Below, one piece after another: positions 15,705-42,876 of a DNA stretch of 49,330 bases. The stretch's first letter is position 1, and each line of letters opens with the position of its first letter. Made by a program: the position numbers and the translations under genes. The notes under the pieces were generated by a model that saw only the letters and a program-made list of their open reading frames with translations, ran no database searches and had not been told where the DNA came from. The stretch is from a virus, in UHGV virus genome UHGV-0139780; one strand, given 5' to 3'.

Positions 15705-17987
15705 ATGACGACTACTGCACTGCAAAATGAAAAAAATCCTTCTGATTACCTTGTTTGCAAGTGGTGCGGCAAATCATTTCACTATTTTAAGTCCCATGTA
15801 GCCAATGGTAATTGTGAGGGCATTCCTGAGTCAGTAAAAGATTCCGACCCTGACACCGTACTGAAAATGTACACAACGCAGTTTCCAGATGAGCCAACGC
15901 TATCGAAAAAGGCACTTGATGCAATTCAAGCTAAACGTGCCGAGCAAAAAAGCGAACTGGCCAAATCTTCTGGCGTGACCAGTAGCCCAGGCTACACAGG
16001 CACAGTTGAGTACAAGACAGATCTGGTCGCAGCTCACGAACTGCTAAACGTAACGGTGGAAGAACTCGGAACAAAACGTGGGACGCCGCTCATGGTTAGC
16101 GTCAACGTCAATACGCCGTTTCCAGAGTTCGTTCCCGAAGTGAAGAAGGGCTACGTATATGGCGACTTCGAACTGATCAAAGATATTTTCATGATGCTTG
16201 AACTTGGCATACCTGGCTATTTGTGGGGTCATGCAGGAACAGGCAAGGCCCAGCCAGTAGATACGCTAATCCCAACACCAAGAGGGATGGTGCGCTTTGG
16301 TGATTTGAAAGTTGGTGATGAGGTATTCGGATCTAACGGAAAGTCCACAAAGATAACAGGCATCTTCCCACAAGGGATTAAGCCAATTTATCGCATCACC
16401 TTTAGAGATGGTTCTAGCACACGAGCTTGCGGCGAACATCTTTGGCATATCCTACCTACACATGAATACAAGACCAAAAACGGCAAGAGCTACAAGCAAC
16501 ATGCAAAAATCAGAACGACCAAAGAAATGATTGACTTGGGAATCAGAAATTCTGGTGGTCAGTGCAAGTTCAAAGTTCCTTTAACTAAAGCTGTCGAGTG
16601 GCCCTCGCAGGAACATCTCATCCATCCCTATTTATTAGGTGCGTTAATTGGAGACGGTTACTTATTAGGGAACACGCCAGCAATGAGCGTGGGTACGGAA
16701 GACATTGATATCAAGAGAAGAATCGATTCTCTTCTTCCTGATGGTATGCGCACCAGCAAGCTCAGAAACACGAGTGAAAACGGGCGGCAATTTAATATCA
16801 TCGACTGCAAAAAGTTCCGTCAAAACAGAATGATGGATGAGATTAAACGGCTGGGTTTGAATGTGCAATCAGGGGAAAAATTTATCCCAGATGAATATCT
16901 CTTCGACTCCACTGAAAATCGCCTCGCTTTACTCCGAGGACTGATGGATACAGACGGAAGCGTGAGACAAAACCGTACAAACTTCTCCACCACGTCTGAA
17001 AAGCTGGCTGCATGTGTGAAGTTTCTTGTTCAGTCTTTAGGCGGAACTGCGATAGTAAAAGATGGAGCCGCAGAACGTCATAAGAGCGGTTACTATGCTG
17101 ATATTAACGTGAAAATGTTCATTAACCCATTTTCCGCTGATCGGAAATCCAAAAACTGGTCTCCATCTACCAAGAATCCGCCAAGCAGATTTATCACCTC
17201 TATCGAGGAAGATGGCGAGGCTGAGTGCATATGTATAAAAGTAAGCGCAGATGATGAACTGTACATCACCGAAGAGTTTATCGTTACGCACAATACAACT
17301 CTGCCTACACAGCTATGTGCTTTGCTCAATCGCCCGTTGATCCGTGCCCAACATACAGCATCAATGGAAGAGGCACATGTTACGGGGCAAATTCTGGCGC
17401 GTGATGGCTCTACGTATTTCGAACCTGGCTTGCTTGCGCTCGCAATGAAGCATGGCTGGGTTTACCTCGCGGATGAATACGACTTTGCGTTTCCACAAAT
17501 TCTTGGCGTGTATCAGCCAGTGCTGGAAGGTGAAGCGTTGGTCATCAAAGAGGCGACTCCAGAATGGCGTCGCATTACTCCGCATGAACGGTTTGCTTTC
17601 ATTGGCACTGGCAACACGAACGGATCTGGTGATGAAACCGGCTTGTACCAGGGTACAAACATCCAGAACGCCGCGAACTTTTCGCGTTTTGGCATCGTTT
17701 CGAATGTGAAATACATGAGCAAAGAGGCAGAGATCAACATGTTGATAAATGCCGGCATTGTGGATGAATACGCTGAAAAGATGGTTAAGTTTGCCGGTAT
17801 CGTTCGCGATGGATACGAAGAACACAATATTAGCCAACCAATTGGGCCTCGTGAGCTTTTGTTGTCGGCCAAGATTGGAATGATGCGAGGCGATTTTGTG
17901 ACAGGTATTGAGCGTTCTTTCATTAACAAACTCCCTTCAGCTTCTGCGCAAGCGGCACGTGAAGTTGTTCAAAAAATATTTGGTTAA
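15705..17987 (+). CDS. AAA+ ATPase (CobS/MoxR-like) interrupted by an intein
   Basis: Walker A GHAGTGK is split from the TTLPTQL continuation by 349 aa carrying two LAGLIDADG-like motifs and a terminal HN. Confidence 0.6.
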   Translation: MTTTALQNEKNPSDYLVCKWCGKSFHYFKSHVANGNCEGIPESVKDSDPDTVLKMYTTQFPDEPTLSKKALDAIQAKRAEQKSELAKSSGVTSSPGYTGTVEYKTDLVAAHELLNVTVEELGTKRGTPLMVSVNVNTPFPEFVPEVKKGYVYGDFELIKDIFMMLELGIPGYLWGHAGTGKAQPVDTLIPTPRGMVRFGDLKVGDEVFGSNGKSTKITGIFPQGIKPIYRITFRDGSSTRACGEHLWHILPTHEYKTKNGKSYKQHAKIRTTKEMIDLGIRNSGGQCKFKVPLTKAVEWPSQEHLIHPYLLGALIGDGYLLGNTPAMSVGTEDIDIKRRIDSLLPDGMRTSKLRNTSENGRQFNIIDCKKFRQNRMMDEIKRLGLNVQSGEKFIPDEYLFDSTENRLALLRGLMDTDGSVRQNRTNFSTTSEKLAACVKFLVQSLGGTAIVKDGAAERHKSGYYADINVKMFINPFSADRKSKNWSPSTKNPPSRFITSIEEDGEAECICIKVSADDELYITEEFIVTHNTTLPTQLCALLNRPLIRAQHTASMEEAHVTGQILARDGSTYFEPGLLALAMKHGWVYLADEYDFAFPQILGVYQPVLEGEALVIKEATPEWRRITPHERFAFIGTGNTNGSGDETGLYQGTNIQNAANFSRFGIVSNVKYMSKEAEINMLINAGIVDEYAEKMVKFAGIVRDGYEEHNISQPIGPRELLLSAKIGMMRGDFVTGIERSFINKLPSASAQAAREVVQKIFG
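16248..17294 (+). mobile_element. intein with LAGLIDADG homing-endonuclease domain inside the AAA+ ATPase P-loop
   Basis: LLGALIGDGYL and LLRGLMDTDGSV blocks; ends ...VTHN with Thr as +1 residue; N-terminal residue Ala (non-canonical); excision restores GHAGTGKTTL. Confidence 0.6.
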
Positions 17988-24664: not shown

Positions 24665-26842
24665 ATGGCAAAAGGAAAATCCGCACTGGCACTTGCTCTG
24701 AAAAAGAAAATCGGTAGCAACGACGAAATTCAGAAAGTAACTCATTGGATTGACACAGGCTTTCCTCCGTTAAACAAAGCTATTTCCGGTCGTTACGATG
24801 GCGGTTTCCCATGTGGTCGTATCGTAGAAGTATTCGGGCCGCCAAGCGCGGGGAAAACCTTTTTGGCAACAGCAGCAATGATATCCGCTCAGAAACAAGA
24901 TGGTCTGGCGGTATTCCTCGATCATGAGAACAGTTTTGATGTTGGCCTGGCTGTCGCCAATGGCCTGAACGCAGATGAGGATGACGGTCAGTGGGTATAC
25001 AAGCAGCCTGATACCTTCGAAGACTCTGTAGAGTTGATCGGCACAATACTTAAATTGGTACGTGATGAAGAGCTTATCCCTGAATCAGCACCTATCTGTA
25101 TCGTGGCTGACTCACTTGCGTCTATGGTTCCGAACTCCAAAGCCGAGAAGTTCGAAAAGATGGCTGAAGGCACTGCCAAAGACAAAGATCAGCTAAACAT
25201 GAACGACAATACGGCGCTGGCGCGTGCGACGAGTGCGAACTTTCCTACTCTGGCTTTGTGGGCGCGTAAATACAATGCTTGTTTAATTTTCCTCAATCAG
25301 ATGAGGACAAATCTGGGAATTATGTTTGGCGATAGATGTTTGAGAGGGGATGCAATAATACCTTTCGTTGATGGCACAAGCGCAACTATCCGAGAAATTG
25401 TAGAGAACAAAATAGAAAAAGATGTGTGGTCGTACAACGAAGAGTCAGGCGTTATCGAGCCAAAGAAAATCAACGAATGGCATGATAACGGCCGCAAGCC
25501 AGATGATGAGGAATGGATACACATCAGCACGCTTGGACACAATACCAAAAACGGGGTTATGGCTGCGACATTTACAGAGGATCACCGCATCCTGACTCGT
25601 CGTGGTTGGACTACGGCCAAAGACATAATTGAAGGCGATGAATTGCTTACCAAGCGCACAACTGTTTTAACTAATGAAACCAGGTCTCAAGTTGTCGGCT
25701 TCTTAGTGGGAGACTGCGCTTTTAGAAAGATGAGAGGCGAAAGAACCACAGCAGGCATTGCTTTTCAGGATAATGCGAACCCGTCTTACTCAAAGTGGAA
25801 AGCGGATAAGCTATCGAATCTATTTGGCGAATTTACAGAGACAAAAGTTCTTTTAGGTCGAATGTCAGGAAAGTACGGAATTAGACACGACTCTCCTGTT
25901 AACAACGATTTTAAAGACCTGGAGGATTATGTCAGAAATCCGCTAAAAGTGTTTACGGAGTTTGCCTCCTGGCAAAACTTCGCTCTACTGGTAATGGATG
26001 ACGGTCATCTTGATAGCAGAGGTCGATACGACATTTCATTTAAACGTAAGGCTAAAAAACACTGTGGCAGAGGGTATCTCCAAAACCTGGCCGATATCCT
26101 GTACGACAAATTCAGCATCAGATCAAAAGTTAACGCGCGTAAGGGAGGCCTCCTCTTTGACCAGGAATCCAGCGCCATAATTGCTGAGAATATTGCATCG
26201 TTTGTCTTTGATTCTATGCAGTACAAGCTCCCCTCGGAGTATCGTGGCAAGTTCGTCGATAATTATGATATGCAACCGGTAGTCTCATTCTATGAACATT
26301 GGACGGTCGTCAAAGATGTCCGCGAGAGCAAGGTAAAAAAGGGAGCGGGGAGAACATTAACACGACGTTATGACATTGGTGTTGAAGACAACCATAACTA
26401 TATGGTTGGAAATTCGGCAAATGGATTTATCGTTCACAATTGCACGTCACCAGGTGGCGATTCACCGAAGTTTTACGCTTCTGTGCGCATCCGTCTCGGT
26501 GCATCGGTGATGAAGGATGGTAAAGAGAAGATCGGTCAGGACGTAGGCGCAGAGTGCATCAAAAACAAAGTTGCACCACCGTATGGCAAATGCACCTGGA
26601 AATTCTACTTCGATCCTACTCGTGGCCTCGACGTTATCGAATCGCTCGTCGAGTACATGCTGGAAGAAGGATACCTGCCAAAGAACGCCAGCGGGCGCGT
26701 AGAAATTGGTGACAAGAAATACACCAAATCACAGATCGTCGAGATGTATCGGGAGAAGCCACTAGCTGAAATCATTGCGGCTTTACAGGCAATCGACGAC
26801 CGGAGAGCAAAAGATACCCCCACGGAGTCAGTAGAAGGGTAA
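24665..26842 (+). CDS. RecA/UvsX-like recombinase interrupted by an intein
   Basis: Walker A GPPSAGKT; exteins rejoin as LNQMRTNLGIMFGDR-CTSPGGDSPKFYASVRIRLG, matching the RecA block NQIR..[23 protein letters not shown]. Confidence 0.7.
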   Translation: MAKGKSALALALKKKIGSNDEIQKVTHWIDTGFPPLNKAISGRYDGGFPCGRIVEVFGPPSAGKTFLATAAMISAQKQDGLAVFLDHENSFDVGLAVANGLNADEDDGQWVYKQPDTFEDSVELIGTILKLVRDEELIPESAPICIVADSLASMVPNSKAEKFEKMAEGTAKDKDQLNMNDNTALARATSANFPTLALWARKYNACLIFLNQMRTNLGIMFGDRCLRGDAIIPFVDGTSATIREIVENKIEKDVWSYNEESGVIEPKKINEWHDNGRKPDDEEWIHISTLGHNTKNGVMAATFTEDHRILTRRGWTTAKDIIEGDELLTKRTTVLTNETRSQVVGFLVGDCAFRKMRGERTTAGIAFQDNANPSYSKWKADKLSNLFGEFTETKVLLGRMSGKYGIRHDSPVNNDFKDLEDYVRNPLKVFTEFASWQNFALLVMDDGHLDSRGRYDISFKRKAKKHCGRGYLQNLADILYDKFSIRSKVNARKGGLLFDQESSAIIAENIASFVFDSMQYKLPSEYRGKFVDNYDMQPVVSFYEHWTVVKDVRESKVKKGAGRTLTRRYDIGVEDNHNYMVGNSANGFIVHNCTSPGGDSPKFYASVRIRLGASVMKDGKEKIGQDVGAECIKNKVAPPYGKCTWKFYFDPTRGLDVIESLVEYMLEEGYLPKNASGRVEIGDKKYTKSQIVEMYREKPLAEIIAALQAIDDRRAKDTPTESVEG
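25337..26440 (+). mobile_element. intein with LAGLIDADG homing-endonuclease domain in the recombinase
   Basis: 368 aa beginning CLRGDAII and ending FIVHN with Cys +1; internal VVGFLVGDCAF and FALLVMDDGHL blocks. Confidence 0.7.
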
Positions 26843-41601: not shown

Positions 41602-41772
41602 TTGTAGGTAGTTATCTATCTATGTATATTGTGTCTGCGCGTTAAATTTCTGAAACAACTATTCGTTTTTGGTGGCCTATGGTCACCATTTTTTTATCTG
41701 TCTGGTCTTGTTCTCTCAATAAATGTAAACTCACACAATAAATAAGTGATTACCTATCTTTGTGAGGTTTTT

Positions 41773-42876
41773 GTGTCACTCCTTTTGAATCGTGAGCATA
41801 CGAACGGTCAGGTAACAAACGCATCGTATGCAAGAGTTATTGAGACGGTGCTTAAAAGCGGCGTGCAGGCTGATGATCGCACAGGCACTGGTACTTTAAG
41901 CACCTGCTACGTTCCCTCTTACTACATGCTTACTGGTGGGACTGTGCCGCTTATTTCTGGAAAGGCGGTAAATCTTAAGCCACTACTTGTCGAACTTGAG
42001 TGGTATCTGAAAGGCACGGGTAACATCCAATTTCTCAAGGATAACGGCGTGAAGATTTGGGACGCATGGGCCGATGAGAATGGTGATTTGGGGCCGGTTT
42101 ACGGCAAGCAGTGGCGTCGCTGGGAAGATACCCGCATCGTGAGCCATAGTGAGTATCTGAGCAAGATCGATACGTTCCGTGAACGCGGGTACAAAGTCGA
42201 GGGATACCTGGGTATCAGTGAAGATCGCGTAGTGCTGTCCCGTGAAATCGATCAGCTACAGCGTATTGTCGATACACTGCGCACGAACCCTACCGATCGT
42301 CGCATCATGCTTAACGCATGGAACGTAGGCGAGCTTGAGGATATGAAACTGCCACCTTGCCACTTTGTCTTCTCTTTGTGGAGTCGTGAGCTTGATTTTG
42401 AAACCCGTTTAACGATGGCAACTGACATTGGTCTTCAACACAGTCGCCTCGGTTACGAGTCTATCTACACCAAGATGCTATACGATCTGGAGATGGTCGG
42501 CAGTGTTACTGAAACTGAACTGGATGAACTTGGAATCCCCAAACGCATCCTCAACTCCTGCCTCGTACAGCGTAGCGTAGACACTTTTGTTGGTATGCCA
42601 TTCAATATTGCTGGTTATGGCATTCTCACTCATTTTCTCGCGAAGATTACGGGTCACATGGCCGGTGCCTTTGTGCATTTTGGCTTTGACGTGCATTTGT
42701 ACAACAACCACATGGAAAGTGTGTGTGAGCTAATGAAACGACAGGCTCCAGAGCATTCAGATCCGGTCGTTATTTTCCCTCATGAATGGTCAGAGTTGGA
42801 TGATTTCAAATGGGACGAGGTTCTAATTCTTGGCTATGCCCCTCTACCGTGGATCAAGGTTCCAGTGGCGGTGTGA
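41773..42876 (+). CDS. thyA: thymidylate synthase (ThyA) with two internal insertions
   Basis: DRTGTGTLS, IWDAWADENGDLGPVYGKQWR, NAWNVGEL, LPPCH, VQRSVDTFVGMPFNIA blocks; start set to GTG 41773 after GAGG; track ATG 41746 lies inside an intergenic motif. Confidence 0.8.
   Translation: MSLLLNREHTNGQVTNASYARVIETVLKSGVQADDRTGTGTLSTCYVPSYYMLTGGTVPLISGKAVNLKPLLVELEWYLKGTGNIQFLKDNGVKIWDAWADENGDLGPVYGKQWRRWEDTRIVSHSEYLSKIDTFRERGYKVEGYLGISEDRVVLSREIDQLQRIVDTLRTNPTDRRIMLNAWNVGELEDMKLPPCHFVFSLWSRELDFETRLTMATDIGLQHSRLGYESIYTKMLYDLEMVGSVTETELDELGIPKRILNSCLVQRSVDTFVGMPFNIAGYGILTHFLAKITGHMAGAFVHFGFDVHLYNNHMESVCELMKRQAPEHSDPVVIFPHEWSELDDFKWDEVLILGYAPLPWIKVPVAV

Follow-up and report, generated by a model that had tools for sequence, protein, structure and literature searches.

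A predicted homing-endonuclease intein in DNA-binding loop L2 of a phage-plasmid RecA-like recombinase, and the diverged tract beside it

A RecA-like recombinase gene with an in-frame insert

We analysed a stretch of viral DNA of 49,330 nucleotides (UHGV virus genome UHGV-0139780; the whole stretch is called the window below), which comes from contig NODE_140 of the metagenome assembly ENA ERZ1749178 and has a coverage of 3.6x. The window carries the replication/recombination module of an SSU5/pHCM2-type phage-plasmid of the E. coli type; the group name is the one that we take to apply, and it agrees with PMC7969092. Within this module lies a gene for a RecA-like recombinase that is interrupted in frame by an insert with the features of a homing-endonuclease intein. 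The main features of the gene are as follows, with a slash marking the intein junctions or the insertion point here and in all sequences below.

24665..26842, + strand: precursor gene, RecA-like recombinase with intein; a single open frame of 725 amino acids (aa) plus stop
24665..25336, + strand: N-extein, 224 aa; holds Walker A, LDHEN, Walker B and NQ
24836-24859, + strand: Walker A, GPPSAGKT, within the N-extein
25222..25336, + strand: upstream co-conversion tract, 115 nt; 28 mismatches to the intein-free allele
25337..26440, + strand: intein, 368 aa, 1104 bp, precursor residues 225-592; predicted split HINT splicing domain with a nested LAGLIDADG endonuclease
25337..25375, + strand: block A, Cys1-LRGDAIIPFVDG, with the N-terminal nucleophile (family alignment)
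25574..25585, + strand: block B, T80-E-D-H83, the TxxH motif (family alignment)
25697..25714, + strand: LAGLIDADG motif 1, GFLVGD, with Asp126 of the intein (family alignment)
25988..26005, + strand: LAGLIDADG motif 2, LVMDDG, with Asp221/222 of the intein (family alignment)
26369..26398, + strand: block F, YDIGVEDNHN (family alignment)
26426..26440, + strand: block G, FIVHN, with penultimate His367 and terminal Asn368 (alignment; TIGR01443)
26441..26443, + strand: Cys+1 codon TGC; ACT (Thr) in intein-free alleles (allele alignment)
26441..26842, + strand: C-extein, 133 aa plus stop, CTSPGGDSPKFYASVR... KNKVAPP

The Pfam RecA profile (PF00154) matched the precursor in two stretches with 115.3 bits, against a curated cut-off of 27. 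Within the N-extein, LDHEN corresponds to the catalytic Glu region, IVADS to Walker B and NQ to the equivalent of Q194 of E. coli RecA. The spliced extein aligned without gaps to E. coli RecA across NQxR...MFG......GG..KFYASVR, and it matched bacterial RecA entries of the PDB (3CMU and others) with E-values of 1e-28 to 1e-31. The match to T4 UvsX was far weaker (4.6e-5), while PHROGs placed the protein with phrog_97, 'UvsX-like recombinase' (7e-84), and also with phrog_9666. Of the two halves of the label 'RecA/UvsX-like', which had been given in an earlier reading of the bare DNA (the sequence-only reading), bacterial RecA is the closer. The equivalog profile of bacterial RecA (TIGR02012) reached 123.6 bits against a cut-off of 325.3, and NF007072, which describes the intein-containing RecA of the M. 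tuberculosis type, reached 81 bits against 1024, with the N-extein alone aligning. On these scores we class the host protein as a RecA-superfamily recombinase and not as a cellular RecA.

The insert can be removed cleanly. The intein-free recombinase of plasmid pPSUO78_2 (L001) has 357 aa and equals the N-extein plus the C-extein exactly. When the 3.5-kb region was compared with plasmid records, the intein part of the query was left uncovered in all 560 matching records, and the best matches span 2397 bp of the record, which is 3501 minus 1104. The sequence-only reading, which had described a 368-aa insert running from CLRGDAII to FIVHN and followed by Cys+1, was correct in its coordinates, boundaries and rejoined sequence, and its clean excision was borne out by both the 357-aa allele and the gap-free alignment to E. 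coli RecA.

This gap-free alignment puts the intein into loop L2, after the equivalent of P206 and before that of E207; there the segment GIMFGDRCTSPGGDSPKFYASVR of the spliced extein stands opposite the loop of E. coli RecA. The insertion point lies 12 residues past the Q194 equivalent (Q+12). We take the DNA-binding loop L2 to be residues 195-209 of E. coli RecA, as is established for that protein; by sequence alignment, the intein sits in this loop and outside the ATPase site proper. The sequence-only reading had put this intein and a second one of the window in ATPase active-site regions, which proved right for the second, located in the P-loop of a CobS-like ATPase (see below), and not for the one in the recombinase.

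Profile searches recovered the splicing and endonuclease domains of the proposed homing-endonuclease intein. On the insert, PF14890 (Intein_splicing) scored 39.3 bits against a curated cut-off of 35.8, PF03161 (LAGLIDADG_2) 28.7 against 25, and TIGR01443 (intein_Cterm) 36.2 against 15.6. The class 1 splicing residues (Cys1, T80-E-D-H83, YDIGVEDNHN, His367-Asn368 and Cys+1) are kept in an alignment with eight relatives. The endonuclease domain is whole and in frame, both acidic residues (GFLVGD126 and LVMDD222G) are retained and are conserved in all full-length relatives, and the MQYKLP and KR-rich segments are present as well. By sequence, the intein had no more than marginal matches in the PDB (E about 2e-3), and we therefore employed structure prediction and a fold search. 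The AlphaFold (AF2) model, built on a shallow alignment, had a mean predicted local distance difference test score of 84.4. Foldseek matched this model in the PDB to the intein endonuclease PI-TkoII (E 3.7e-8). The middle domain matched I-SceI (E 6.7e-8, template modelling score on the target 0.61), I-WcaI (1.7e-6) and I-DmoI (about 4e-5), and the HINT part matched the splicing domain of the Mtu RecA intein with a root-mean-square deviation of 1.2-1.5 A over 106 residues. All of the features that are accessible to analysis in silico mark the insert as a canonical class 1 intein with a predicted nested I-SceI-like LAGLIDADG homing endonuclease. By our own rough estimate, the intein probably splices; for an endonuclease that is still active, the balance tips slightly in favour.

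The diverged tract and the arrival of the intein

Over the 115 bp upstream of the intein and the +1 codon, the window gene differs from intein-free alleles by about 25%; elsewhere it shares 98.6% of its positions with them, 8 of 557 nt differing upstream and 5 of 387 downstream (~1.4%). In comparisons with three alleles, 30-32 mismatches fell within the 130 nt at the junction and 13-50 within the remaining 944 nt (Fisher p 7.6e-10 to 2.3e-21). The window extein reads ACLIFLNQMRTNLGIMFGDR/intein/CTSPGG and departs from the intein-free alleles beside the junction only; on the 3' side of the intein, the bases of the Cys+1 codon are the sole ones that are clearly imported. Since 14 of the 20 differing codons in the tract are synonymous (the other 6 being non-synonymous), the tract represents imported DNA, not an extein that has adapted to its intein. 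Among 795 related plasmids, the best match to the tract is 82.5%, and it is therefore the lineage of the window that has changed. As the scar sits in a gene that is otherwise nearly unchanged relative to intein-free alleles, the homing event must have been recent.

Such asymmetric co-conversion of the flanks is the classic signature of endonuclease-driven homing. The allele comparison leaves the recombination event itself plainly visible, while the break that started it would have been made by the intein's own endonuclease. The donor, which none of the collections searched contained, would have been a recA-like gene whose divergence roughly matches that of the Salmonella, Klebsiella or Cronobacter types. 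That the insert is a genuine intein and that it was gained by gene conversion is, as a joint statement, very probable in our judgement. The 'active homing pressure' proposed in the sequence-only reading finds backing in the sharp co-conversion tract that adjoins this intein.

Copies of the intein proved to be rare. There was no match to it in 5,426 complete E. coli genomes (megablast) and no DNA-level match in PLSDB or INPHARED, and searches of IMG/VR, the GTDB species genomes and the JGI metagenomes likewise yielded nothing closely related; among the 795 related plasmids, none carried it. With tblastn, identity peaked at 37% for Acinetobacter plasmids and at 36% for an Erwinia jumbo phage. 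A word-indexed search of 5.8 billion proteins gave four matches, the best with 41% identity over the full query, and an exhaustive HMMER search of 1.84 billion cluster representatives recovered 1296 relatives at E <= 1e-3, of which 115 reached E <= 1e-30; the closest is 45% identical. The exact protein forms a singleton cluster, found on two ENA contigs of one assembly.

Several points weigh against our interpretation. The N-terminal intein profile TIGR01445 reached 24.3 bits, marginally below its cut-off of 24.5. The donor lineage was not found, either with the upstream tract among the related plasmids or with the intein in all collections searched. The intein is confined to a single assembly (two contigs, coverage 3.6x) and shows no sign of spread at the population level. 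Finally, endonuclease activity is often lost after fixation, and kept motifs are no proof of activity.

We infer the following course for the splicing reaction, the homing cut and the origin of the imported DNA. The gene would be translated as a 725-aa precursor, which should be inactive because both the core domain and the DNA-binding loop L2 are split. Cys225 (Cys1 of the intein) would undergo an N-S acyl shift, Cys593 (+1) would accept the N-extein, and Asn592 would cyclise with the help of His591 and so release the intein. The product would be a recombinase of 357 aa with GIMFGDRCTSPGG as its L2 loop. The freed 368-aa intein is predicted to cut the L2-coding sequence of intein-free alleles when related elements share a cell, near GTAATGTTTGGCGACCCT/ACTACGTCACCAGG, and repair from the intein-bearing copy would then transfer not just the intein but also a part of the extein DNA beside it. 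In the window allele, the imported DNA comprises the intein, the +1 codon and some 115 bp on the upstream side, all of which would stem from a ~75-80% identical recA-like gene of an unsampled relative, expected to read ...LIFLNQMRTNLGIMFGDR/C.

Alternatively, splicing might have been kept while the endonuclease died, so that the window would hold a stranded and decaying copy that no longer homes. This would agree with the singleton status of the intein in every collection searched, and decay seems common in the family because some of its members (P0003, P0004, P0101 and P0105) are mini-inteins that have lost the endonuclease domain. Yet the domain in the window is intact, with both LAGLIDADG Asp residues and the MQYKLP and KR-rich segments kept, it is confidently modelled as I-SceI-like, and the scar in a 98.6% identical gene speaks for a recent homing event. 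We therefore regard a dead endonuclease as rather unlikely.

The intein might also act as a conditional switch, in which splicing is held back until a signal and thereby times the recombinase in the life cycle of the phage-plasmid. The precursor, with L2 and the core fold split, must be inactive, and both nucleophiles are Cys, a residue reported to be oxidation- and zinc-sensitive in other inteins (literature cited in PMC8529194); moreover, Novikova et al. have argued for regulatory roles of RecA/RadA inteins (PMC4760082). No sequence feature of the window intein favours regulation, however, none of the 795 related plasmids carries it, and the mosaic tract fits plain selfish homing, which makes a switch distinctly improbable.

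Two further candidates were rejected as very improbable. An assembly chimera, in which the assembler joined an intein segment of another element into the phage-plasmid contig, is conceivable at a metagenome coverage of 3.6x, but the identical runs in the diverged tract are just a few bases long and therefore offer no shared k-mer for a switch save at the tract ends, as in a true recombinant, the frame is perfect across 2175 nt, and the identical protein occurs on two contigs. The other candidate is retention of an intein ancestral to the group, with precise loss from every other sampled plasmid. Conversion with an intein-free allele could in principle bring about such a loss, but it is the diverged flank in the window that is the outlier, at no more than 82.5% to 795 plasmid records; the three alleles examined closely agree with each other at the tract, and the remainder of the window gene is 98.6% identical to the E. 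coli type.

Related inteins in loop L2 and other RecA inteins

We read the ~140 best relatives of the intein, counted their insertion points from the Q194 equivalent by gap-free extein alignment, and assessed relatedness within the family by a pairwise identity matrix. Nearly all of them are RecA-like proteins with an L2 intein, and the insertion points are distributed over the loop as follows (cluster representatives of about 140).

Q+7: 5 cluster representatives
Q+9: 11 cluster representatives
Q+10 (MFG/S; G204/S205): 84 cluster representatives
Q+12: 4 cluster representatives, the window included
Q+13: 21 cluster representatives
Q+14: 5 cluster representatives

The gap-free extein alignment thus places the window intein two codons downstream of the common MFG/S site (Q+12 vs Q+10), which is presumably the site named RecA-b in InBase. 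The nearest relatives, 41-45% identical, are P0006, P0001 and P0008 at Q+13 and P0007 at Q+7; P0009-P0011 also insert at Q+7. The contigs of P0006 and P0007 (63-93 kb) carry the same module of gp32, 5'-3' exonuclease, RecA and Mre11/SbcC-like genes. The intein of the Acinetobacter plasmid pABTJ2, 38% identical to that of the window, belongs to the same subgroup and inserts at Q+13, whereas the two other Q+12 inteins with its flanking GD motif (P0126 and P0135) fall outside the near relatives of the window intein.

According to Kelley et al., identities of ~30% or less are normal between inteins and ~40-48% point to recent common ancestry (PMC5050341). As the identities in this subgroup pass that yardstick, related inteins occupy different codons of one loop. 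A tentative reading of these alignments is 'intein sliding', in which an intein lineage may move its site over a distance of a few codons without losing the ability to splice and to home; we consider this possible, with the odds against it. The subgroup behind this reading consists of full-length inteins, mutually 40-57% identical, in orthologous recA-like genes at codons Q+7, Q+12 and Q+13, and the wider family adds Q+10. In P0001 the junction reads GDPR/CTPGG and in the window GDR/CTSPGG, so that the window lacks one residue before the intein and shows an extra one after it, where TSPGG belongs to the recipient itself. The one-codon offset might be a fresh result of repair with a downstream crossover that was out of register; alternatively, the donor may already have had the arrangement seen in the window.

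Further arrangements were seen among the relatives. P0016, a metagenomic RecA/UvsX-like protein of 1012 aa, has two L2 inteins six residues apart (VIISN/SPEYEP/CMIGST...AFAVSN/CGEALKFY). The UvsX-like recombinases of the jumbo phages pEa_SNUABM_17 of Erwinia (L007) and fHe-Yen9-02 of Yersinia (L008), of about 1150-1190 aa, have besides the L2 intein a large insert directly after KFY (KFY/CFDRDT...FVSHN/SDVRV); probably it, too, is an intein, which would follow the first at a distance of 14 residues. In the A. baumannii phage-plasmid pABTJ2 (L006, NC_020524 27123-29321), a 732-aa 'recombinase RecA' holds a 360-aa intein of the same family (MFGDPT/C...LVHN/CTPGG). This intein was present in 138 Acinetobacter plasmids, and the paper describing the plasmid is silent on the intein.

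Compared with known systems, the closest are the L2-loop RecA/UvsX inteins of pABTJ2, pEa_SNUABM_17, fHe-Yen9-02 and many RecA proteins of the bacterial type (MFG/C...HN/SPETT), with homology over the full length of HINT and endonuclease parts at 33-45% identity. They share with the window intein CL[RH]G...PFVDG, WSYNE, T..H, MDDG, MQYKLP, YDI.V.DNHN and VHN, and all of them insert, as it does, between the equivalents of Q194 and G211, though at differing codons.

The same orthologous gene in other SSU5-type elements (the LF82 plasmid, Cyrano and pSCMY1) carries a different LAGLIDADG intein of 422 aa in the P-loop, between K64 and T65 of Walker A (GK/C...HN/T). The window lacks this intein, which differs from its own in site and showed no similarity to it at E<=1e-5, tblastn with the window intein having matched no Enterobacteriaceae plasmid. 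The P-loop intein is common: 248 PLSDB plasmids carry it, 241 of these at >=95% identity, from Escherichia, Klebsiella, Enterobacter and Citrobacter; in phage Cyrano it occupies positions 1358-2623 of L002 and is also present in L003. Some of these genes are labelled 'intein-containing recombinase RecA' by the Prokaryotic Genome Annotation Pipeline, and often the label is just 'LAGLIDADG family homing endonuclease'.

PI-MtuI of M. tuberculosis RecA (PDB 2IN0 and others) is likewise a class 1 intein in RecA and its HINT fold superposes on the window model, but its sequence similarity to the window intein is marginal (E about 4e-3) and its site is a different one, between the equivalents of K250 and I251, before CSPPFK. 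I-SceI, the best structural match for the nested endonuclease, belongs to the same Pfam family (PF03161) at 18-20% identity; it is a free-standing monomeric enzyme encoded by a group I intron, whereas the window endonuclease sits in an intein.

RecA inteins have long been known in M. tuberculosis and M. leprae. A survey of 2015 counted 56 of them (PMC4760082), and our literature searches returned no paper on inteins in SSU5-type phage-plasmids. Because RecA inteins, including another one in the same plasmid group, are already known, the window intein is a new, divergent RecA L2 intein at a rarely used site and not a new kind of element.

Genomic setting, the second intein and significance

Non-mobilizable plasmids of ~110 kb from E. 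coli and E. albertii match the region at 96-98% identity, as do phages such as Cyrano and PhiR41_1. The module in the window comprises genes for a DnaB-like helicase, primase, integrase, CobT, a CobS-like ATPase, DnaE, a gp32-like single-stranded DNA-binding protein, a 5'-3' exonuclease, the RecA-like recombinase, an SPFH protein, a Rep3 initiator, Mre11/SbcC-like proteins, ribonucleotide reductase and ThyA.

The sequence-only reading had counted two inteins within 10 kb, and the second is indeed present about 8 kb upstream of the first.

16248-17294, + strand: second intein, 349 aa, in the P-loop of a CobS-like AAA ATPase (open reading frame 15705-17987)

Its junctions read GHAGTGK/AQPVDT...FIVTHN/TT. 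It starts with Ala and so has no nucleophile there. The Trp of its block B (EHLW), the Cys of its block F (ECICIKV) and a Thr that precedes His-Asn make up the WCT pattern by which class 3 inteins are defined (PMC5050341). Intein-free CobS alleles read GK/SS, the two residues after the intein having changed too, from SS to TT. None of 470 related plasmids covered this intein at the DNA level. Its best PHROG matches were terminase large-subunit families (2.3e-44).

Two other genes showed features of their own. The thymidylate synthase frame at 41746-42876 (+) encodes 376 aa, of which residues 27-376 align to a Pfam profile of 266 positions; this implies ~85 additional residues within the domain, and a typical intein would be longer. 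In E. albertii plasmids of ~62 kb (PLSDB matches H13-H18), the recA-like region aligned in four pieces and was accompanied by an IS3-family IS911 transposase; the recombinase gene of these plasmids appears to be disrupted by an insertion sequence.

The intein leaves what is known of intein mechanism unchanged, and its interest is moderate, residing in a fresh scar, a donor absent from the collections searched, two rare inteins in one element and an L2 family that uses several sites. Recombinases or inteins of this kind easily go unnoticed because such genes are often labelled 'LAGLIDADG family homing endonuclease', 'hypothetical protein' or plain 'recombinase RecA'. A new Cys1/Cys+1 intein with an I-SceI-like endonuclease, from an element compatible with E. 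coli, may be of use for protein engineering and for studies of specificity. In the plasmid group, the same recombinase gene serves as a target for no fewer than two unrelated inteins, of which one sits in the P-loop and the other in L2. The window offers a natural snapshot of intein homing between enterobacterial phage-plasmids in which the imported flank can still be seen; its visibility on a 98.6% identical background points to a recent event and to exchange with relatives that lie outside the collections searched.

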